This document shows, piece by piece, positions 1,572 through 58,051 of a stretch of 64,000 nucleotides of DNA (within the stretch, counting starts at the first letter, position 1; each line of letters begins with the position of its first letter). The translations under genes were made by a program, and so were the position numbers. The notes below the pieces were generated by a model that made no database searches, was not told where the DNA came from, and saw nothing but the letters and a program-made list of their open reading frames with translations. Origin of the DNA: a virus (Duplodnaviria; Heunggongvirae; Uroviricota; Caudoviricetes); IMG/VR virus record IMGVR_UViG_2684623189_000005; one strand, given 5' to 3'.

Positions 1572-2998
1572 CAGTTGCCCCCTTTCAGGGTTAACAGGTA
1601 TTCCGAGGTGATCTCAGTCTCAAACGTCAGTCGCTCCAGCGGCGGTGGTGGCGTATATTTGTAGCTCAGCAACAGGTGCCCGGCGGCCAGCTCCGTCTCC
1701 GGATTGCGGGCCGGATCAAACCAGCAACGGAAGCCCAGTACCGCACCATCACCAGTCATTTTGCGACCGTAGGCGTTGACCGACTCCGTCAGTGCATCAA
1801 TCAGCGCCTGAGTAATCGGCATGTCGATGTACTGCTGGCTGAAATAACGAATGGACTCGTTGATCACATCACCGGTGCGGCGAACGTTCTCAAAGTTACG
1901 CATATGGGTGACCGTTGGCCATGCTGCCGTCCGGTTACCCCACAGACGAAGGCCGCTGCCGTAACTGCTGAATACCGTGGTGATCCCCTGTTCGTTAAGC
2001 AGGTTCACCTCACTCTGCGGGTCATCAATCATCGCGGACAGCTGGCGCTCCACGCCGGTGATCCCCAGAATCTCCTGATTGGAGGATGACCACCAGTAGC
2101 CCTTGTCCAGATCGACTCTGGCACGCAGACCTGCTGCACGCTGGCTGAGCGGCTCCAGACGCTCTGTGTTTGTCACCGGGTCATATACCTTCACATGCGG
2201 ATAGCACAGACGGACGCGGTCGGAGCTGGTATTGAAGTTGATGGTGCCTTCCGGGCCACGACCTGCCAGAGCCTGTGCAAAGGTGGTACCGACAGGCGCA
2301 TCAATGTAGGTTACCGCGCCCAGCTTCTCTGCCATGGCGATAAGCTCAACTGCGACACTCTTCTGGGTGCAGAACACCGGCGCAATCAGAATTTTGGCGA
2401 AATAGCCGTACAGGTTGAAGCTGTCGTTAAGCAGCTTCATGCCGGTTCGGTTTCCGGCGCTGTTCACCCCGCCGATGATGTCCGCCGCAGTCACCTTCGA
2501 CGGGTCCGCGTACTCATAGCTCACCTTCACGCTGCCACCGGCCTCAATAGCCTTGCCCAGGTTCGTGAGCACACCCGCCTGCGCATCAACACGGTAGTCC
2601 GTGTTCGCCGTGTGGGTGGTGCTGCCTTCACTGTTTTTCACCACCACATTAGCGACAACCGGATGCGCCAGTCTGGCCTGCCCTGTCGATTTGTCAAAGG
2701 TAACCACCTCATCCTCGATCGCCGTTTTATGTTTCGCCGGGTCGAGGACGTTAATGACCAGAACGGTGCCTGCACCATGGTCATAAATCGCATCCAGCGC
2801 CTGCGGAATGGTAAAGCCGGTGAACTGGCTGCCAAATGCCGCTGCGTCTTTCTCAGACAGGCACTGTACCAGCGTATTGACATCCCCCATCGGGGCGGTA
2901 CCAATCAGGCCAATAACGGCAGATTTCACCGTTTTAACCGGGCGGGCTCCGTTTTCCACCTCAATGGTTTCGGGACCATGCAGATAGTTAGCTGCCAT
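1571..2998 (-). CDS. phage tail sheath protein (P2 FI / Mu L-like)
   Basis: 475 aa, size and sequence character of myovirus sheath proteins; followed by tube gene. Confidence 0.8.
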   Translation of the reverse strand: MAANYLHGPETIEVENGARPVKTVKSAVIGLIGTAPMGDVNTLVQCLSEKDAAAFGSQFTGFTIPQALDAIYDHGAGTVLVINVLDPAKHKTAIEDEVVTFDKSTGQARLAHPVVANVVVKNSEGSTTHTANTDYRVDAQAGVLTNLGKAIEAGGSVKVSYEYADPSKVTAADIIGGVNSAGNRTGMKLLNDSFNLYGYFAKILIAPVFCTQKSVAVELIAMAEKLGAVTYIDAPVGTTFAQALAGRGPEGTINFNTSSDRVRLCYPHVKVYDPVTNTERLEPLSQRAAGLRARVDLDKGYWWSSSNQEILGITGVERQLSAMIDDPQSEVNLLNEQGITTVFSSYGSGLRLWGNRTAAWPTVTHMRNFENVRRTGDVINESIRYFSQQYIDMPITQALIDALTESVNAYGRKMTGDGAVLGFRCWFDPARNPETELAAGHLLLSYKYTPPPPLERLTFETEITSEYLLTLKGGN

Positions 2999-3242
2999 GG
3001 GCGTCCTCCGTTTTCACTTCGCTGTCACTGCTGCTTCTGCGCTTTGGTGACTGCACAGCCGGTGTGACGGCGGGTTTAGTATCTTCTGGTACCGGCGTCA
3101 GATGCTTCAGCGCCACCAGTACCTTCACGTAGTCATGCTCCTCCGGCAGGGAAACCGTCTTCCCCGGCCAGAGCAGGATTTCGGTTCCGTCCGACAGCGT
3201 GACGCCGCTGGCCGGGCCGGAATAGCGGTATTCTTTCATCAC
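2988..3242 (-). CDS. small Mu-like virion protein (DUF2635-like by recollection)
   Basis: 84-aa ORF in conserved position upstream of sheath; overlaps neighbours by a few bases. Confidence 0.45.
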   Translation of the reverse strand: MMKEYRYSGPASGVTLSDGTEILLWPGKTVSLPEEHDYVKVLVALKHLTPVPEDTKPAVTPAVQSPKRRSSSDSEVKTEDAHGS

Positions 3243-3703
3243 TCGCTTTCCTCATAGTTCACTTCGGTTAACAGCGGGCCGGACGGTAAATCGCTGTCTT
3301 CGATAAAGATGCTTTCAGTCGCGAAGTCGAGGGCGTATTGCCACAGCCCCCTGACTTCACCGATAAACACCTCGCGGGTCAGCCAGATACGGCAGCGGCA
3401 CCCGGGCGGGGTGTGGCCACCGAGAATGCGGCGGACAGCATCCAGGACATTAATCGCCCCTTTTTTACCGTTGAGCTGGCGGAAGACCACCGTGACGCAG
3501 AGCTGGATAGTCTGAGACTGGATCACCGCACCGGTATCATCCGGCCTGTCAAAGCGCGAACCGGCATAGCTCAGCAGCAACGCGCCAACCGGATGGTTCA
3601 GGCGATATTCAGCCGGTTTCTCCGGGAAGTACTCCACCTGCAGTTGCGGCAGCTTCTCGCGTAACCGGGCCAGCACCGCATCAAGGACGGGCAGAACGTT
3701 CAT
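3239..3703 (-). CDS. Mu-like prophage gp37-like protein
   Basis: 154 aa, operon position between gp36-like and sheath as in Mu-type phages; family assignment from memory. Confidence 0.5.
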   Translation of the reverse strand: MNVLPVLDAVLARLREKLPQLQVEYFPEKPAEYRLNHPVGALLLSYAGSRFDRPDDTGAVIQSQTIQLCVTVVFRQLNGKKGAINVLDAVRRILGGHTPPGCRCRIWLTREVFIGEVRGLWQYALDFATESIFIEDSDLPSGPLLTEVNYEESE

Positions 3704-4149
3704 CAGTATTTCTCCAGTAAACCGTCACGACCGCCGAAAGTGGCCGGGCGACTGCGTACACGAAACTCGCCAGGCTCAGGCACATCTTTCTGAGTGGACG
3801 GCAGCCCCAGCGTGAGCCTGTTATCACGTAACTCCCTGAGTTGCCGCAGCGCTTCTTTGTGGTCATCCTTCACCGTATCCGGGAGGTCACCTTCCGGGCG
3901 GCGGGCGTAGAGCCGGTAACGGACCAGCGTGATGGCAATGTCCCGCAGAACAGTCGGTATCTCTGCCAGTGGCAGGATATAGCGTCCGCGCAGATGGGCA
4001 TCAATCAGCTCGTCGGCATAGCGGATACAGCTGTCCACCACACGGGTATTCACTGTTGCAGGCGAGTCGAAGTCCATCTCTTCACTGGTGAGTTCGATAA
4101 GCGTCCGCTCCGGCACCTGCGCAAGCAAATCCTCCAGGGTGCAGTACAT
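3703..4149 (-). CDS. Mu-like prophage gp36-like protein (DUF1320-like)
   Basis: Internal ATG at 4147-4149 gives MYCTLEDLLAQVPERTLIELT..., typical N-terminus of this family; the longer track ORF has an implausible N-extension overlapping the upstream gene. Confidence 0.5.
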   Translation of the reverse strand: MYCTLEDLLAQVPERTLIELTSEEMDFDSPATVNTRVVDSCIRYADELIDAHLRGRYILPLAEIPTVLRDIAITLVRYRLYARRPEGDLPDTVKDDHKEALRQLRELRDNRLTLGLPSTQKDVPEPGEFRVRSRPATFGGRDGLLEKY

Positions 4150-4150
4150 G

Positions 4151-4489
4151 TCACACCCCGCGCAGGATACGAATGACGTCGCCTTCACCCCCGGCTTCAT
4201 CAAGTGCAATACCACAGGATTTACCGTCGCCGGACTGCGGCACGGCTCTGGCCTGAGCATCTGACTGAACAGCCACACCACGGCTGACAGCGGCCCCGGC
4301 CTCGACAGCAATAATGCCCAGAACGCTCACCGGCGTGCTGTCGCCGGTAACAGCATCCACTTCGGCAACCCCGAGCGCTGCGGCACCGGCTTTACAGGGG
4401 GTATTATCTGCCCCGACAAAACGCTGCTGTGCCAGTGCTGCCCCTGCCGTTACGGTTGTGATCAGAATGACCTGCTGAGTGGTTCCCAT
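4151..4489 (-). CDS. small Gly/Ala-rich head-associated protein (DUF2190-like)
   Basis: 112-aa ORF directly downstream of the major head gene, as in Mu-type head modules. Confidence 0.45.
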   Translation of the reverse strand: MGTTQQVILITTVTAGAALAQQRFVGADNTPCKAGAAALGVAEVDAVTGDSTPVSVLGIIAVEAGAAVSRGVAVQSDAQARAVPQSGDGKSCGIALDEAGGEGDVIRILRGV

Positions 4490-4498
4490 AACGCCTCC

Positions 4499-5452
4499 TT
4501 ATTTACTGATACCGGTAATGAGATACCCGGCATCGCCACCAACCACGGCGACTTTGTAGATATCGGTATAACGGCAGTACTTCACCTTGCCACCGGCTCC
4601 GTCGTATTTGTCGGCAACAGGCATCCCCTTACGACGCAGGGTGTAGCCGAAGGACGGCTCGTTCTCGTCCGCGCTGTCCGCCCCCGGCTGCGGTTTGCCG
4701 ACATAGTGCAGCATCAGATTGTCTCCCCAGATATCCGCCGGCACGCTGTTCTTATCCATTGCCGCTTTCATGGACGGCAGGGAGACTGGGGCACCGATGA
4801 CGATCTCTTCGATCTGAAAGAGGTCCTGCAGGATTTCTGTGGTGATGCGCTTGCGTTCGTTGGCTCCGATGGCGGCCTGAATCGCCGGGTGGAACTTCAG
4901 CAGCGCCATCACGCCGGCCCCCATGGTCATCAGGTTAGGACGCAGCCCCGTGGCCGTACGGACCGCTTCCATACCGGCTTCAATCACCCCGATGGGGTCC
5001 CCCTTACCACCGGCCCAGCGATCACTGGCTGTCAGTTTTTTGACGTGCCCGGTACGGTAGACCTTTTCATCCTGAGCCAGACGGGCAGCGATAAGTTCAC
5101 GGCGCAGGTTCACGCCATTCGTGGCGCGACGGATGGCCTTGCTCTCTTCGTTAAACATGGACTCCGCCTGCTCGCGATAGTCCACCGGCGCAGCCAGATC
5201 GTGTTCACCCAGCACCAGGTCCAGCGTGCCTGTTTTTTCACGGACCAGAACATTGCTGTCCGCCCCGACGGCACGCTCGGTGTCATATTCCACAAAGGCG
5301 GTTTTCCCGAAGGTCGGTACACGCACGCCTTCCTTGTCCGTCAGCACGACGGGGAAAATACGTTCGCCGATGAATGCGGCATTTTTATAGCCACGGGCGA
5401 TACTGGTCAGTACCGGATCAACGACACGTTTACCTTTTAAGTAATCAGACAT
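4499..5452 (-). CDS. major head subunit (Mu gpT-like)
   Basis: 317 aa, MSDYLKGKRVVDPVLTSIARGYKNAAFIGERIFPVV... resembles Mu-type major capsid proteins; follows protease/scaffold gene. Confidence 0.75.
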   Translation of the reverse strand: MSDYLKGKRVVDPVLTSIARGYKNAAFIGERIFPVVLTDKEGVRVPTFGKTAFVEYDTERAVGADSNVLVREKTGTLDLVLGEHDLAAPVDYREQAESMFNEESKAIRRATNGVNLRRELIAARLAQDEKVYRTGHVKKLTASDRWAGGKGDPIGVIEAGMEAVRTATGLRPNLMTMGAGVMALLKFHPAIQAAIGANERKRITTEILQDLFQIEEIVIGAPVSLPSMKAAMDKNSVPADIWGDNLMLHYVGKPQPGADSADENEPSFGYTLRRKGMPVADKYDGAGGKVKYCRYTDIYKVAVVGGDAGYLITGISK

Positions 5453-51843: not shown

Positions 51844-52134
51844 TCATCTTTTAACTCCATATACCGCCAATATCCGTTTCATCGTGGCACTCTGGCGACA
51901 CTCCTTAAAAATCAGGTTCGTGCTCATCTTTCCTTCCCGTTCTTCCTTGGTAGCAAACCGGTAATACACCGTTCGCCAGACCTTACCTTCGATAACCAGA
52001 AGACCTGCCCGTGCCATTTTAGCCGCGGCCTGATTTATGCTGGTTACTGTTGCGCCTGTTAGCGCGGCAACGTCCGGCGCACAGAAGCTATTATGCGTCC
52101 CCAGGTAATGAATAATTGCCTCTTTGCCCGTCAT
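51844..52134 (-). CDS. ren: Ren protein
   Basis: MTGKEAIIHYLGTHNSFCAPDVAALTGATVTSINQAAAKM... matches lambda Ren. Confidence 0.85.
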   Translation of the reverse strand: MTGKEAIIHYLGTHNSFCAPDVAALTGATVTSINQAAAKMARAGLLVIEGKVWRTVYYRFATKEEREGKMSTNLIFKECRQSATMKRILAVYGVKR

Positions 52135-52832: not shown

Positions 52833-53728
52833 AAATCCACCCCGTAAATCCAGTCAGTGTTTGTCAGGTCGAGTTTTGGTTTGCAGGCTGTCACACCTGC
52901 CTGTTGCTTGTTACGGTTGATTTCGAGCTGGGTCCACTTGTCGCGGAGTTTGGCCGGGCTCAGCACGTTACCGGACCAGAAGTTGTCCTGGCATGCCCAG
53001 CGGAACAGTACACACATGTCGCGATGGTTACGTCCGTCACGTTCACGCATCAGGCGGATATCGTTAGCCCACCCTGCAAAATTCGGTTTTCTGGCTGATG
53101 GCGCGATGGTCTTCACCATGTCAAACATCCATTCTGCGGCGGTCAGGTCTTCTGCTGTCCCCCACTTGCTGCCGCTCTGAATTGCAGCATCCGGTTTCAC
53201 CACAGAAAGGTCGTTTTCTGGCTGGTCAGAGGATTCGCCAGAATTCTCTGACGAATAATCTTTTCTTTTTTCTTTTGTAATAGTGTCTTTTGTGTCCCCC
53301 TGTTTTGAGGGATAGCAATCCCCCAATTTGAGGGATGTTTTATCCCTCGTTTTAGGGGATTTTCCCTCGTTTTGAGGGATACACCATTCTGAGATGTTTT
53401 TATTTGGTCCAAACATGCCGCCTTGCTGCTTGATAATATTCATTCTGACGAGTTCTAACTTGGCTTCATTGCACCGTTTGACGGGTAACTTTGTAATCTC
53501 GCTAAGTTGAGAATCGGTGATTCTGTCCATTGGTTTATTCCATCCATAGGTTTTACGCAGAATGGCAAGCAGCACTTTAAACTGTCGCTTGGTCAGATCT
53601 GCGCCTGAATAAGCCTCAAGCAGCATATTTGATAGTCTGGCGTAACCATCATCGAGATCTGCCACATTACGCTCCTGTTTGGCAAAGTTACCTCTGCAGA
53701 AGTTGAGTATTTTTGCTGTATTTGTCAT
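52829..53728 (-). CDS. O: replication initiator protein O
   Basis: 299 aa; MTNTAKILNFCRGNFAKQERNVADLDDGYARLSNML... matches lambda O. Confidence 0.9.
   Translation of the reverse strand: MTNTAKILNFCRGNFAKQERNVADLDDGYARLSNMLLEAYSGADLTKRQFKVLLAILRKTYGWNKPMDRITDSQLSEITKLPVKRCNEAKLELVRMNIIKQQGGMFGPNKNISEWCIPQNEGKSPKTRDKTSLKLGDCYPSKQGDTKDTITKEKRKDYSSENSGESSDQPENDLSVVKPDAAIQSGSKWGTAEDLTAAEWMFDMVKTIAPSARKPNFAGWANDIRLMRERDGRNHRDMCVLFRWACQDNFWSGNVLSPAKLRDKWTQLEINRNKQQAGVTACKPKLDLTNTDWIYGVDL
53230..53380. repeat. ori: ori-lambda: four ~18-bp iterons (TCCCTC-N6-GAGGGA type) plus adjacent AT-rich region, inside the O gene
   Basis: Plus strand shows CCCTGTTTTGAGGGAT, CCCCCAATTTGAGGGAT, ATCCCTCGTTTTAGGGGAT and TCCCTCGTTTTGAGGGAT, with an A/T-rich tract just below. 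Confidence 0.8.
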
Positions 53729-53737
53729 AATGACTCC

Positions 53738-53815
53738 TGTGGATTGATCCAGTAATGACCTCAGAATTCCATCTGGATTTGTTCAGAACGCTCGGTTGCC
53801 GCCGGGCGTTTTTTA
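53738..53815 (+). ncRNA. oop: oop antisense RNA (overlaps cII 3' end)
   Basis: ...GATCCAGTAATGACCTCAGAATTCCATCTGGATTTGTTCAGAACGCTCGGTTGCCGCCGGGCGTTTTTT matches lambda oop, including its terminator. Confidence 0.6.
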
Positions 53816-54057
53816 TTGGTGAGTCCATCAAGCGCATACTTAAAAGCCCTGCTAATCGGACTGATGTCTGATGCCATTCCGAAAGCACACAAGACCGAAG
53901 CAATAAATCTCCAGTCCGTTCTGCTTATCTTCGATTCATGACAGCCAATCATCTTTGCCAGACCGCGCTGGGTAATAGCTGACAGATTGATAAGTAAATC
54001 TGTTTCTGCGCGATCAACGTCACGCTGTGATAGTTTGCTGTAACTTGTTCTTTCCAT
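53761..54057 (-). CDS. cII: cII-like transcriptional activator (chimeric: non-lambda N-terminus, lambda C-terminus)
   Basis: 98 aa; C-terminal ...LTNKKRPAATERSEQIQMEF matches lambda cII while residues 1-75 do not. Confidence 0.75.
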   Translation of the reverse strand: MERTSYSKLSQRDVDRAETDLLINLSAITQRGLAKMIGCHESKISRTDWRFIASVLCAFGMASDISPISRAFKYALDGLTNKKRPAATERSEQIQMEF

Positions 54058-54142
54058 TTCTTAAGATTTCCAATAGTGAATAGTTAGTTGAAAGGTATGC
54101 GTGGAAACGCATATGGCCTTAGTTGGTCAGATATCTTGGAAC

Positions 54143-54188
54143 TCGCTTTTCAGCGACGTAGGACGAATGTCCGTTGTTACAAAGAGCG
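54143..54188 (-). promoter_or_regulatory. nutR: nutR candidate (boxA CGCTCTTTG, boxB hairpin with GAAAA loop)
   Basis: Minus strand between cro and cII: CGCTCTTTG then TCGCTGAAAAGCGA; boxB nearly matches the nutL hairpin. Confidence 0.5.
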
Positions 54189-54198
54189 GATCCGCTTA

Positions 54199-54414
54199 TT
54201 AAGCGGCTTTGTGTTCCGGCGGGAACACGTCATCAAGACTGACTTTTGCGCCTAACTTGTTTAGGCACGCAACAAGAGCACGGCATGTTTTAAGGTCTGG
54301 GAAGCGACGACCAGATTCCCAATGTCCGATAGCTCCCTGTGTGCATCCAACTGCCTTAGCAAGTGTTGTTTGAGAGATATTCAGTGACTCTCGATATTTT
54401 CGTAGGTTGCTCAT
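54199..54414 (-). CDS. cro: Cro-like repressor (HTH)
   Basis: ATG at 54412-54414 preceded by GGAGGG; 71 aa MSNLRKYRESLNISQTTLAKAVGCTQGAIGHWESGRRFP...; divergent from cI. Confidence 0.75.
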   Translation of the reverse strand: MSNLRKYRESLNISQTTLAKAVGCTQGAIGHWESGRRFPDLKTCRALVACLNKLGAKVSLDDVFPPEHKAA

Positions 54415-54531
54415 ATGCCCTCCATAGTAAACACGAATAAAAAAATACAATATGTACTTTGCGAATACAAGTAAAAATACACATTGTGCATGGATGGTTC
54501 CAGTACAGAGCGTAATAATAAGGACATGAAA
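54415..54531. promoter_or_regulatory. OR region with divergent pR/pRM (operators not resolved)
   Basis: AT-rich spacer between divergent cro and cI starts containing TACA...TGTA inverted repeats (e.g. TACAATATGTA). Confidence 0.5.
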
Positions 54532-55185
54532 ATGAAATGGTATGAACTGGCTAGATCCAGAATGAAAGAGCTCGGCATAACTCAAGAGAAGTTAGCCGAA
54601 GAGCTAGGTATGACGCAGGGTGGGATTGGACACTGGTTGCGCGGATCTCGTCATCCATCTCTTAGTGATATTGGTGTGGTGTTTAAATACCTTGGTATTG
54701 ATAACATATCATTCAACCACGACGGGACATTTTCACCTGTTGGCGAATACTCATCGGCCCCAGTTAAAAAACAATATGAGTACCCTGTTTTTTCTCATGT
54801 TCAGGCTGGGATGTTCTCTCCAGAACTCAGAACCTTTACCAAAGGCGATGCGGAGAGATTGGTAAGCACAACCAAAAAAGCCAGTGACTCTGCATTCTGG
54901 CTTGAGGTTGAAGGTAACTCAATGACCGCACCAACAGGTTCCAAACCCAGCTTTCCTGACGGGATGTTAATTCTGGTTGACCCTGAGCAAGCTGTTGAGC
55001 CCGGCGATTTCTGCATAGCCAGACTTGGTGGTGATGAATTTACCTTCAAGAAACTGATCAGGGATAGCGGTCAGGTGTTTCTACAGCCACTAAACCCACA
55101 ATACCCAATGATCCCATGCAATGAGAGTTGTTCCGTTGTGGGGAAAGTTATCGCCAGCCAATGGCCTGAAGAGACGTTTGGGTGA
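54532..55185 (+). CDS. cI: CI-type prophage repressor (N-terminal HTH, C-terminal S24 LexA-like peptidase domain)
   Basis: ATG at 54532 (alternative 54526); [26 protein letters not shown]; C-terminal ...[27 protein letters not shown]... fits S24 Ser/Lys peptidases. Confidence 0.8.
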
Positions 55186-55224
55186 TGAAACCACTTTTAT
55201 CTACAATTTACAGGGCGGTAAACA

Positions 55225-55782
55225 TTGGCAAAAATAGATGATTATCAGCCAAGCCAAGTAGAAGTTGATAAAGTACTTTATTGTAAAAAAATAGTTAACT
55301 TTTCTGGCGTTAAATGGAAACAGAAACCAAGTCGCTCTGATATGTGGCTACAAGCCCATATCATCCCCTTGGATGAGGATTGTATACCTATACAAGGGCT
55401 AAAGTTTGAACTGAAATGGAAACCAGATCAGGATTCAGAACCTGATGACCCGATTTCTTACCCTAAAATAAATATTATTGCTTTCTATCATAACAAGAGG
55501 GTTTTCGCGGTAGATACCTATCACTTTGACAAACACACGAATAGTTACAAGGTCGATCATCCGAAGTACCAAGATATCATTTACGGTGCTCACTACCATG
55601 TATACTATGAAGAAGCTGGATACTATAGTGATAGAATAGCGTTTCCAATCGAAGATGACATAAACCCAGATGACCTGGTAGGGTATTGGAATTACTTCTG
55701 TAAACATCTGAACATAACTTACTCTGGGAGAATACCTTTACCGCTTGAAGATGAGTCGGGGCAAATGGGGTTTGGAATATGA
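55225..55782 (+). CDS. unknown protein A of the cI-adjacent cassette (rexA position)
   Basis: 185-aa ORF starting 40 bp after the cI stop on the same strand; track start is TTG (first ATG at 55342); Tyr/His/Asp-rich, no motif recognised; AT-rich by eye. Confidence 0.55.
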   Translation: MAKIDDYQPSQVEVDKVLYCKKIVNFSGVKWKQKPSRSDMWLQAHIIPLDEDCIPIQGLKFELKWKPDQDSEPDDPISYPKINIIAFYHNKRVFAVDTYHFDKHTNSYKVDHPKYQDIIYGAHYHVYYEEAGYYSDRIAFPIEDDINPDDLVGYWNYFCKHLNITYSGRIPLPLEDESGQMGFGI

Positions 55783-56531
55783 TGTGCTCAACAGTGATCT
55801 CACAACTAGGTTTCGAATGCCATCCAATAGGCAAGACCTTGAGAATTATCAGTCCATTCACTTACTGTGATGATGGAGAGCATGTCGGTGCCTTTATCCG
55901 TGAAGTCAATGGTAGGTATTTAGTTAGTGACAGATGCGATGCCTTAATGAATATGGAGGCAAGAGGGATCTCGCTTACCAAAAAACGACTTGATGAGATA
56001 CGACAATTACTGCTTAAAGAAGGCGCAGAACTCAATGCTCGAGGAGAAATCATTGCTTGGGCAACAGAAAAGGATGTCGGTGCGATTACATCGAACATAA
56101 TTAGAGCTGGTATACTCGCATCAACTTTGTCGTTAGACTGGTATCAGCCAGTTCAAGCTGAAAAGTTTGAAAGTATGGTTATTGATTATCTATATCACAC
56201 AGAGCTTAGAGACGCACTTTCTCTTCGTGAAAACGTATATGGCTTGAGTGGACATCAAATTACCGTCCCTGTAACAATAAAAACCGACATACCTAAATAC
56301 GTTTTTACATCAAGCGTGAAACACGGAGGAAGCTGGAATAGTGCTTACTCATTGCTTGGGAAACTAATTGATCTTAAAGCTTCAAGTGAGGAGTATAACA
56401 ACAGATTTGTTGTTATAGACAGCGAAGCAATTGGTGATCAAATGCAACAACTCTCCTTACTCTTCCATGAATCAAGCCAAGTTCTACCATTCTCCAAAAG
56501 AGAGACTTGGGTTAAGAGACTTGCAGCATAA
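55779..56531 (+). CDS. unknown protein B of the cI-adjacent cassette (rexB position)
   Basis: 250-aa ORF; ATG overlaps the stop of protein A (ATGA); no TM segments or motifs recognised; followed by a terminator. Confidence 0.6.
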   Translation: MMCSTVISQLGFECHPIGKTLRIISPFTYCDDGEHVGAFIREVNGRYLVSDRCDALMNMEARGISLTKKRLDEIRQLLLKEGAELNARGEIIAWATEKDVGAITSNIIRAGILASTLSLDWYQPVQAEKFESMVIDYLYHTELRDALSLRENVYGLSGHQITVPVTIKTDIPKYVFTSSVKHGGSWNSAYSLLGKLIDLKASSEEYNNRFVVIDSEAIGDQMQQLSLLFHESSQVLPFSKRETWVKRLAA

Positions 56532-56535
56532 TACA

Positions 56536-56563
56536 ACCCGGCCTCAGCGCCGGGTTTTCTTTG
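56536..56563 (+). terminator. rho-independent terminator ending the cI-cassette transcript
   Basis: ACCCGGC-CTCAGC-GCCGGGT hairpin followed by TTTTCTTTG, 5 nt after the stop. Confidence 0.6.
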
Positions 56564-56689
56564 CCTCACGTTCGCCCACCTAAAAACACATAACCAATTA
56601 TATTTATTGAAAAATAAATAGATGCAACCCACTAAACCACGCAATTCTGATCTCTCCTTACATCGCCGAGGCAATACATCCACGCTAAA

Positions 56690-56800
56690 AAACAACACTA
56701 TTAAATACAAAGCGTTATAAAAAACCACGCCAACTTACAACAAATTGTATTGATCTTGTAAAGTACATATCGTACTATTTAACCGTCAGCAGGACGCTGG
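56690..56800 (+). promoter_or_regulatory. OL/pL region (approximate)
   Basis: AT-rich segment upstream of nutL with TACAA/TTGTA-type inverted repeats (TACAACAAATTGTA; AGTACATATCGTACT) resembling those in OR. Confidence 0.4.
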
Positions 56801-56824
56801 AAGCCAAATGGAACAGACTGGCAG

Positions 56825-56869
56825 GCTCTTTAAACAACGTCGACTCTCGACTACGTGGCTGAAAAGCCA
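56825..56869 (+). promoter_or_regulatory. nutL: nutL candidate (boxA GCTCTTTAA, boxB TGGCTGAAAAGCCA)
   Basis: boxA-like GCTCTTTAA then a GAAAA-loop hairpin about 100 nt upstream of N. Confidence 0.55.
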
Positions 56870-56967
56870 GATCACCCAACCACATAAGCTGTGGGATGCA
56901 ATGCCGAAGCAACCGTCTCAGGAGGAGCTTCGAGATTGCATCGCCAAAGTTTATTCGGGAGGAATCC

Positions 56968-57240
56968 ATGTCCAGAAAAACAGAATTTAAAGGCACCGCA
57001 GCTTCTCGCCGTAGAGCTCGTCGCGCAAATCTGCAAAGTCAGGAGGCGATCAGCTCCGACAAGCTACACAGGCCAACCCCTTCACGAGTGGTCTTGCAAT
57101 GCAAGCTCAAACCAGCAATGAGAGCAGAAGTGATAACTCTGACAACGTTGACCAGAAAATATGAAGGTTCAACTTGTCTTCCGAACGTAGCTCTTTACGC
57201 GGCAGGCTACCGGAAATCAAAACAACTGACGGCGAGATGA
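56968..57240 (+). CDS. N: N-type antitermination protein (arginine-rich motif)
   Basis: SD GGGAGGA before ATG; 90 aa; N-terminal ARM TAASRRRARRANLQ; position between pL/nutL and sieB. Confidence 0.7.
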   Translation: MSRKTEFKGTAASRRRARRANLQSQEAISSDKLHRPTPSRVVLQCKLKPAMRAEVITLTTLTRKYEGSTCLPNVALYAAGYRKSKQLTAR

Positions 57241-57256
57241 TAAATTCATTTGCTAA

Positions 57257-57838
57257 TTACTTGTTTTTGCCATGCTTATCCTGAGCGATAAGTTCATCCA
57301 TAAGGCTGTCTGCCTTCCCGGCAAACCTAATGTAGCACTCATGTCTATAGCTTTCAGGGATAACGAAACGGTCGGTATCAGGATATCCAACAGCAGGAGG
57401 CCTTCGAACGAGGAGTCCTTTTTTGAGCAATGAAATTGATTCATGAGCGCCCTTTTCCGTTTGTAGCTGGTTATTAGCGGCTACAGCGAATGCCAAATAC
57501 GCTCTTTCTCCAAGAGTTAACGAATCAAACAAATCTTGCACATATTTTTCTTCTTTAGATTTGCGCTTCTGAGCAGCGAATACCTCAATTCTTTCAGTCA
57601 CAGCGTGATAAGCGGAATTAACAACGCCGTTAAGCACATAGCTAACGCAAAACAACAGGATGTAATACATCCAGTAATGAGGAAGGATTTCTGGATTATG
57701 CAGGTTTATCCATTCTTTTACGCTTACCGGCATAACAATAATCAATATGATCAGGATGATTAGCATATGAATCAACTGTTTAAGTGTCATTCCTTGCAGG
57801 AAAAAATGCATTAGTTCCTGCCACCATGAGTTGTTCAT
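57257..57838 (-). CDS. sieB: superinfection exclusion protein B
   Basis: 193 aa, MNNSWWQELMHFFLQGMTLKQLIHMLIILIILIIVMPVSVKEW...; lambda sieB position. Confidence 0.8.
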   Translation of the reverse strand: MNNSWWQELMHFFLQGMTLKQLIHMLIILIILIIVMPVSVKEWINLHNPEILPHYWMYYILLFCVSYVLNGVVNSAYHAVTERIEVFAAQKRKSKEEKYVQDLFDSLTLGERAYLAFAVAANNQLQTEKGAHESISLLKKGLLVRRPPAVGYPDTDRFVIPESYRHECYIRFAGKADSLMDELIAQDKHGKNK

Positions 57839-58051
57839 CGGCGTTTCTCTTTTGCTCTCTGTAGGGGTGAATAGAGTTTATCCGATTTCTCGTTGTAGGG
57901 GTACACGAGAACCACCGAGCCTGATGTGGTTAAAAGACAGGCACAATCTTTACTACCGCAATCCACTCTTTAAGGTGATATATGGAAGAAGAATTTGAAG
58001 AGTTCGAAGAGCATCCTCAAGATGTGATGGAACAATACCAGGACTATCCGT

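Follow-up and report, generated by a model that had tools for sequence, protein, structure and literature searches.

Abortive-infection systems are a recognised cargo of the interval between the repressor gene cI and the antiterminator gene N of lambdoid prophages: both rexAB and bstA are found there, beside one of a prophage's most active promoters and within a hotspot of mosaicism (Owen et al. 2021, PMC8585504, with reference to Degnan et al. 2007). Here we consider a different two-gene cassette that occupies this position in a tailed-phage genome (Caudoviricetes; IMG/VR virus record IMGVR_UViG_2684623189_000005), of which one stretch of 64,000 nucleotides was analysed, hereafter the window. 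Its genes, which we call A and B, stand exactly where rexA and rexB stand in lambda, and we think it probable that they form a horizontally exchanged, prophage-encoded, two-protein anti-phage module of the exclusion or abortive-infection type, expressed in the lysogen. This takes up the suggestion of a first-pass annotation, made from the sequence without database searches, that the locus is a candidate exclusion system; the position on which it relied is documented (PMC8585504) and two computational screens, PADLOC and DefensePredictor, concur with it, whilst the function itself is something that we infer.

By position, the nearest described relatives are RexA and RexB of lambda. They share with A and B the slot between the cI stop codon and the terminator Timm, the strand and the flanks, and they too make up a two-gene cassette that is presumably transcribed together with cI in the lysogen. 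The proteins themselves are different: the PADLOC models for RexA and RexB, which as a positive control scored the lambda proteins at 9e-110 and 9e-61, gave no match to A or B at E<=1, just as the first-pass annotation had judged. RexB is described as a membrane ion channel (PMC8585504), whereas A and B lack transmembrane segments (maximum 19-residue Kyte-Doolittle means of 0.45 and 1.19, respectively, in line with the earlier impression) and should thus both be soluble. Their folds also differ from those of the Rex proteins, as B is predicted to join a chaperone-like to a nuclease-fold domain and A is a predicted beta-rich protein with no structural match. BstA of the Salmonella prophage BTP1 and DS-34, a 'CI + downstream hypothetical' unit validated in the DefensePredictor study (Science 2026, PMC13092281), resemble A-B in that defence genes directly follow a prophage repressor whose promoter they presumably share, but each has a single downstream gene. 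PADLOC returned no BstA match for A or B, in a release in which the presence of a BstA model is unconfirmed.

By content, the pair resembles PDC-M24, which belongs to a set of 145 'phage defence candidates' (Payne et al., bioRxiv 10.1101/2024.01.29.577857). This cassette, FAM_00129>>FAM_00065 with a count of 153, was put forward on account of its position inside BREX, DISARM or type I restriction-modification loci, and it seems to have the same two families in the same order, with an A-type gene directly upstream of a B-type gene on the same strand; its context is a restriction-modification or BREX locus, whereas that of A-B is a prophage immunity region. Protein B matches the PDC-M24B models PDLC04540 (E=4.7e-10, residues 2-249) and PDLC04539 (1.5e-7), and A matches the PDC-M24A model PDLC04536 at 4.8e-4 over residues 104-163 only. 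More distant A-B pairs match the same PDC-M24 models, including one distant A homologue that matches PDLC04533 at 5.7e-6 over nearly its full length. Judging from these profile scores, A-B would be a diverged branch, only remotely related to PDC-M24.

Closer still, DefensePredictor lists exactly these two proteins, WP_001062368.1 (A) and WP_000968518.1 (B), each as a 'Predicted novel defense gene', and assigns both to a single transcription unit in an ECOR strain (PMC13092281). Against a strict cut-off of 4, their log-odds are 4.90-5.42 and 5.64, with 6.26 for the variant WP_000968517.1 of B (PMC13092281). Neither accession appears in Table S6 of that study, which gives the units that were cloned and tested (PMC13092281), so the pair was predicted by DefensePredictor, not assayed. 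The same study found PD-(D/E)xK to be the commonest domain among its validated systems and ties DUF1829 to defence through DS-6B, the partner of a HipA-like kinase (PMC13092281). The first-pass description of the cassette as 'unrecognised' must therefore be narrowed, since the identical proteins and their PDC-M24 relatives had been flagged already. PDC-M24 was not named in any paper that our literature search returned, nor did the search yield anything on PhiR57, and DUF1828 and DUF6978, the other families discussed below, surfaced only as incidental mentions in unrelated papers.

An exchangeable slot between cI and Timm

The cassette and its immediate surroundings are laid out as follows.

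54490-55185, plus strand: cI repressor gene (LexA/S24 family), an open reading frame corresponding to cI of phage PhiR57_1 and to the LexA family protein WP_001302016.1 of Escherichia coli Nissle 1917
55186-55224, plus strand: 39-nt spacer between cI and gene A, with a Shine-Dalgarno-like element, GGGCGG, some 8 nt ahead of the TTG; left recombination junction
55225-55782, plus strand: gene A, an open reading frame of 185 amino acids (aa) with a TTG start (WP_001062368.1)
55779-56531, plus strand: gene B, an open reading frame of 250 aa overlapping A by ATGA (WP_000968518.1)
56535-56564, plus strand: intrinsic terminator, a GC-rich hairpin AACCCGGCCTCAGCGCCGGGTT with a T-run, from a terminator scan and the lambda alignment; right recombination junction
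56750-56778, plus strand: pL-like promoter, TTGATC-17-TACTAT, from homology to lambda pL and by eye
56825-56833, plus strand: nutL-like boxA, from alignment with lambda nutL
56856-56869, plus strand: nutL-like boxB, from alignment with lambda nutL

The first-pass annotation had placed two open reading frames of these lengths behind cI on its strand, in the rexAB slot, with a stem-loop terminator ahead of pL, nutL and N, and the present analysis bears this layout out and makes it more precise. The TGA stop of A and the ATG of B share the tetranucleotide ATGA, and the terminator scan, which placed the hairpin and T-run behind B at 56535-56556, found nothing between cI and A. About 70 nt at the 3' end of cI are nearly identical to lambda cI; similarity to lambda ends 2 nt past the cI stop codon (~55189), returns at the hairpin AACCCGGCCTCAGCGCCGGGTT and runs for about 120 nt before diverging at the operators. 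The terminator behind B is homologous to the lambda terminator, and bears the label 'Timm' in phages mEp332 and HK244. By these two breakpoints, the cassette is an exact substitution for rexA-rexB. The pL-like promoter, which falls under the 9/12 threshold of the promoter scan and is assigned from homology and by eye, begins the next, lytic, transcription unit together with the nutL-like element, and the cassette thus lies outside the N operon. No RNA family was found by Rfam in 53500-58000.

Base composition sets the cassette apart as well. At 0.396, its GC content lies below the mean of 0.523 for the window, and no other 1345-bp stretch of the 64 kb is as poor in GC; at third codon positions, GC is 0.36 in A and 0.34 in B. 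The AT-richness that had been noted by eye is thus confirmed by calculation. We read this low GC, a compositional signal, as suggestive of a foreign origin.

A survey of the cI-N interval in related prophages, which the first-pass annotation had recommended, returned at least six unrelated cassettes between the same cI and Timm flanks. Lambda carries rexA-rexB in this slot, mEp332 a single 345-aa open reading frame, HK244 two of 144 and 206 aa, E212 a 285-aa NYN-domain frame with a weak HEC-09 match, and Stx2 phage II another unrelated frame. In complete E. coli genomes whose cro-cI and N flanks are ~96% identical, the slot holds an SDH-family Clp-fold protease or unnamed hypothetical proteins; where only the cI 3' end and Timm are common, it holds a P63C-domain protein or rexAB. 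The cI-Timm slot is a cassette-exchange hotspot. Its other cassettes, mostly uncharacterised, make a ready list of further defence candidates.

Further genes lie in or beside the immunity region.

51844-52134, minus strand: ren homologue, downstream of P, annotated in PhiR57_1
54199-54414, minus strand: cro, in the immunity region
56968-57240, plus strand: antiterminator gene N, flanking and outside the cassette; an arginine-rich open reading frame annotated as N in PhiR57_1
57257-57838, minus strand: sieB (superinfection exclusion B), directly after N

Two of these, sieB and the ren homologue, are further exclusion-type genes flanking the immunity region; together with the A-B cassette, they bring the prophage to at least three candidate anti-phage functions within 6 kb. 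At the cI 3' end, the stretch 55100-55189 is nearly identical to lambda cI despite differing operators. For the NC-SV lambdoid prophage, a 2026 paper reports that svsR, a co293-like small RNA encoded at the cI 3' end, lowers phage adsorption (PMC12803456); we set that paper aside as a source on the cassette, since its subject is a prophage integrated at icd and the cI 3' end rather than A-B.

Proteins A and B and their predicted folds

The start of gene A had been left in doubt between TTG at 55225 and the first internal ATG, which does lie at 55342. All 17 full-length A homologues are 183-187 aa long and begin MAK.DDY, and the homologue alignment has invariant positions within the first 39 residues of A, ahead of the internal ATG; TTG 55225 is hence the true start. 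Six other loci have GTG at this position and one (Thorsellia) has ATG, so that a weak start codon is a conserved feature of gene A. This suggests selection for low expression of A or for a fixed A:B ratio.

Protein A is a remote relative of DUF6978 (PF22398), as far as profile scores can place it, and not a member: it scores 22 bits against a gathering cut-off of 29.6 (E=2e-4, residues 104-164 only), and 16 of 18 A homologues likewise match below threshold. The model of A is mostly beta-strand (pLDDT 82, pTM 0.80), with no fold match among solved structures. A signature R-[IV]-[YF]-x-[LVM]-[DHNQ], followed by H-x-N and then by H-x-H, is kept down to ~20% identity; here it comprises R92, D97, H104, N106, H123 and H125, which fall on neighbouring strands of the model. 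This cluster of an arginine and three histidines suggests a metal or catalytic site, if the model is right. The last ~15 residues (PLPLEDESGQ.G) are strongly conserved and predicted to be disordered, a combination typical of peptides that dock into a partner, and one that A may share. Two apparent relatives of A were rejected: designed Kelch-like repeat proteins (E=4e-6, PDB), whose score is a repeat artefact with no significant single stretch, and the HIT family, as the third histidine is absent.

Protein B belongs by sequence to Pfam DUF1828 (PF08861; 33.5 bits, cut-off 22, residues 26-110), as do 31 of 31 close homologues. Modelled with AlphaFold2 from 31 homologues (pLDDT 80), B is predicted to fold into two domains. 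Residues ~1-120 form the DUF1828 domain, with a predicted fold like that of YbjN and type III secretion chaperones, and residues ~129-250 take, in the fold search, a restriction-endonuclease fold of the PDDEXK clan, DUF1829-like. By hmmscan, B itself does not match DUF1829 (PF08862), and 12 of 62 broader family members do so weakly (best 6e-4); for the identical protein, HHpred places residues 155-241 in DUF1829 (clan PDDEXK) with a probability of 98.8% (DefensePredictor supplement, PMC13092281). HHpred and the fold search thus agree on a predicted restriction-endonuclease fold for the C-terminal domain. The first-pass annotation, which could name no family for either protein, is superseded here: B combines DUF1828 with a DUF1829-like domain, and A is the remote DUF6978 relative described above. 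Neither protein matches NCBIfam, and neither they nor their family profiles have a meaningful sequence match among all PDB chains.

The two-domain layout of B is widespread. A HMMER scan of 1.84 billion representative proteins yielded 228 B clusters, with full-length matches nearly all of ~250 aa and of the same organisation. Among 117 members, the best-conserved positions are D51 (100%), P26, D32, G33, G63 and G89 in the N-terminal domain, and G155, S157, G158, H159, K195, D198 and D/E214 in the C-terminal domain. Pro164 is Asp in 22% of the family, in distant members, and Phe176 is Gln, Asp or Glu in most of it; the C-terminal domain could have an unconventional active site. The earlier statement that the proteins have no obvious catalytic motifs is not wholly correct, as A has the conserved arginine and three histidines and B the nuclease-fold domain, even if no canonical triad is visible in the latter.

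Linkage of the pair and its spread

A lies directly upstream of B and overlaps it in all eight genome loci examined (Izhakiella, Yersinia, two Providencia, Xenorhabdus, Pantoea, Thorsellia and one probable contaminant contig). In four of the eight, the pair is preceded by a cI homologue 34-57% identical to the one here; in Xenorhabdus and Thorsellia, the preceding gene encodes a CI-type repressor that went undetected in a search with this cI. The association holds much further out. Eight distant B relatives (E 1e-47 to 1e-7 against the family profile) all have an overlapping or abutting upstream gene of 94-177 aa, and by hidden Markov model these partners are A homologues that share the Arg/His signature. 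Two of these distant loci are phage immunity regions, with a cro-like gene, a small repressor, A and B in metagenomic phages; one is apparently chromosomal and adjoins an EF-G homologue and a TonB-domain gene; another adjoins a BrnT-like toxin gene. Across 12 loci, pairwise identities of A and of B correlate at r=0.97, for pairs that are not phylogenetically independent. Down to ~20% identity, A and B remain an overlapping pair that co-diverges, in most cases directly behind the gene of a prophage repressor.

That apparently chromosomal locus, a very distant one, has a third, small gene, encoding 62 aa rich in Lys and Ser, which overlaps the end of B (6163-6351 of contig L022; 1340-1528 of contig L023). 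The PDC supplement holds a three-gene variant, FAM_00129>>FAM_00065>>FAM_00027 (10.1101/2024.01.29.577857), and some branches of the A-B family may be three-component. On a metagenomic phage contig with a distant A-B pair (L014), a diversity-generating retroelement lies a few kb downstream, at 2789-5038, with an Lcl_C-type target gene, bAvd and a reverse transcriptase.

Homologues of A and B are found across Enterobacterales and beyond, and with the matches of A to phrog_2017 (6e-67) and of B to phrog_1960 (1.6e-106), this spread marks both as real genes and not chance open reading frames. Phages ev017, ev207, PhiR57_1 and PhiR63_2, the latter two of which probably stem from Brenes & Laub 2025, carry the 1435-bp cassette at 100% identity, and an Stx1a phage carries it at 99.4%. 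Of 5426 complete E. coli genomes, 239 (about 4%) contain it, including Nissle 1917, ATCC 25922, the type strain ATCC 11775, NU14 and APEC O18, and 236 of the 239 carriers have the same entire cro-to-N region. Identity is again 100% in Nissle 1917, ATCC 25922, the type strain and many isolates of extraintestinal pathogenic (ExPEC) and avian pathogenic (APEC) E. coli; the accessions given above for A and B are those of the Nissle 1917 proteins.

The Nissle 1917 copy is followed, ~100 bp beyond sieB, by a frameshifted insertion sequence of the IS3 family, ISEc52 (4249-4435 of contig L028), which fits the reported defectiveness of the lambdoid prophage of this strain (PMC5987069). The same paper, which concerns the Nissle 'pr' repressor, was otherwise set aside, as its clone is a 410-bp amplicon and it is silent on A-B (PMC5987069). 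A 518-bp contig of an Actinomadura rugatobispora assembly, NZ_JBHSON010000334.1, spans an A/B junction, with the B part 82% identical to E. coli; this is almost certainly enterobacterial contamination of the assembly.

Possible function and competing explanations

Defence is the best available reading of A-B, because the slot is exchangeable, the GC content low and the pair conserved as a unit, because two computational predictions favour it, and because B carries a predicted PDDEXK-clan domain. How could such a module work? In the lysogen, A and B would be transcribed with cI from pRM/pRE, the conserved weak TTG/GTG start would keep translation of A low, and B would be translationally coupled to A through the ATGA overlap. 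The two proteins would then form a complex, with the likeliest contact being the conserved extended tail of A within the chaperone-like N-terminal domain of B, since such folds typically bind extended peptides. A component of a superinfecting phage would disturb this complex, and the effector activity so freed would block phage development or kill the cell, most likely by acting on nucleic acid through the nuclease-fold domain of B, the His site of A, or both. The complex, the trigger and the effector steps are a model, not a finding. In a more specific form, which we put forward tentatively and rate as rather doubtful, A would adopt a fold not represented in the PDB and act as an enzyme or bind metal, with a site of one Arg and three His residues and its tail held by the DUF1828 domain of B, and a phage protein would compete for the groove and release the effector, a mechanism not yet described.

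Such logic has parallels in toxin-antitoxin-chaperone systems and in sensor-nuclease fusions such as Can2, a likeness in possible working that makes no claim of membership. In contrast to Can2 and Card1, which join a sensor to a PD-(D/E)xK domain, the N-terminal domain of B is predicted to be chaperone- or YbjN-like rather than CARF or DUF3037, no cyclic-nucleotide synthase lies near A-B, and the canonical catalytic triad is not visible in B. DS-6B of HipAD contains DUF1829 as well, although its partner is a HipA-like kinase and not a DUF6978-like protein.

Several points weigh against a defensive role. The canonical D...(D/E)xK triad on strands beta2/beta3 is not recognisable in the B subfamily, so that the effector could equally be A, and the nuclease-fold domain of B may bind rather than cleave. 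The PADLOC match of A is weak and partial, and PDC-M24 itself is a candidate, no PDC having been assayed by its authors (10.1101/2024.01.29.577857). In the DefensePredictor study, of the 94 predictions that were cloned, 45% gave protection from one or more of 24 phages, and about half of the candidates with comparable scores gave no protection (PMC13092281). Nor are the two screens fully independent of our own arguments, as the features used by DefensePredictor include neighbouring genes and GC. The accessible literature holds no protection assay and no lysogen transcription data on A-B. Finally, the constant linkage to a repressor is equally expected of a function in the control of lysogeny.

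This last point deserves attention, as A-B could be an accessory of the lysogeny switch that affects how stable the repressor is, how readily the prophage is induced or how its own phage decides between lysis and lysogeny, rather than attacking other phages. Lambda RexA and RexB also help the transition to lytic growth, and in nearly all phage contexts examined A-B lies right downstream of CI-type repressors, even unrelated ones. A precedent is 434 Hex, transcribed from pRM, which is reported to act on repressor cleavage (PMC3564112). Yet a repressor-specific function would not be expected to move among unrelated repressors, and the many unrelated, interchangeable cassettes found with the same immunity region imply that the content of the slot is dispensable for the switch. 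One distant pair lies beside the EF-G homologue and the TonB-domain gene, in an apparently chromosomal, non-phage context, and the PDC-M24 relatives are embedded in BREX and restriction-modification loci; we consider a switch accessory unlikely. A toxin-antitoxin-like addiction module, in which one protein is toxic and the other neutralises it, selected for the stability of prophage or cassette with defence as a by-product, strikes us as a shade less probable again. Overlapping frames in a translationally coupled operon conserved as a unit, the presence of a nuclease-fold protein and the BrnT-like toxin gene beside one distant locus would all suit it, as would the only experimentally studied DUF1829 protein, the presumed antitoxin-like partner of a kinase toxin (HipAD/DS-6, PMC13092281). 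A and B are, however, larger than typical type II pairs, have no DNA-binding antitoxin domain, and match no toxin or antitoxin family, of type II or otherwise, in Pfam, NCBIfam or PADLOC. This explanation also overlaps heavily with the anti-phage one, as many toxin-antitoxin systems are abortive-infection defences.

The low GC, the terminator of its own and the inferred expression from a lysogenic promoter are, moreover, the typical layout of a lysogenic-conversion moron, which would be kept for a benefit to the fitness or virulence of B2/ExPEC and commensal carriers. Most of the E. coli carriers listed come from humans, dogs and birds, with extraintestinal and avian pathogens and Nissle 1917 among them, at ~100% identity. 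We find this the least probable of the alternatives, and only a slim chance: neither A nor B has a signal peptide or a transmembrane segment, Pfam and NCBIfam give no similarity to virulence or metabolic families, and the pair occurs in phages of very different hosts (Xenorhabdus, Thorsellia, Providencia) as well as in metagenomic phages. Such breadth favours a phage-centred function over a niche-centred one.

What, then, would an anti-phage role for A-B mean? The variability of the slot, the PADLOC candidate family and the presence of these exact proteins on a published prediction list were already known, and everything mechanistic is new; the value as a discovery is limited by the two published screens that flag A-B or its distant relatives. 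The candidate system is nonetheless carried by several of the reference and probiotic strains of E. coli in widest use, among them Nissle 1917 (probiotic), ATCC 25922 (quality control) and the type strain, as well as in ExPEC and APEC isolates, and could thus affect phage therapy, typing and strain engineering. Inducible phages that carry the cassette, ev017, ev207, PhiR57_1 and PhiR63_2, have been sequenced and deposited. Should the tail-docking reading be true, it might partly explain the phage resistance that is reported for the lambdoid prophage of Nissle 1917. If the anti-phage reading is true, it would provide a function for DUF1828/DUF1829 and DUF6978-like proteins, and in the tail-docking form the first for all three. 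If protective, A-B would be a further system, mechanistically uncharacterised, at the classic rexAB locus, and the cI-Timm slot would work like the P2 and P4 defence hotspots, with conserved flanks swapping defence cargo.

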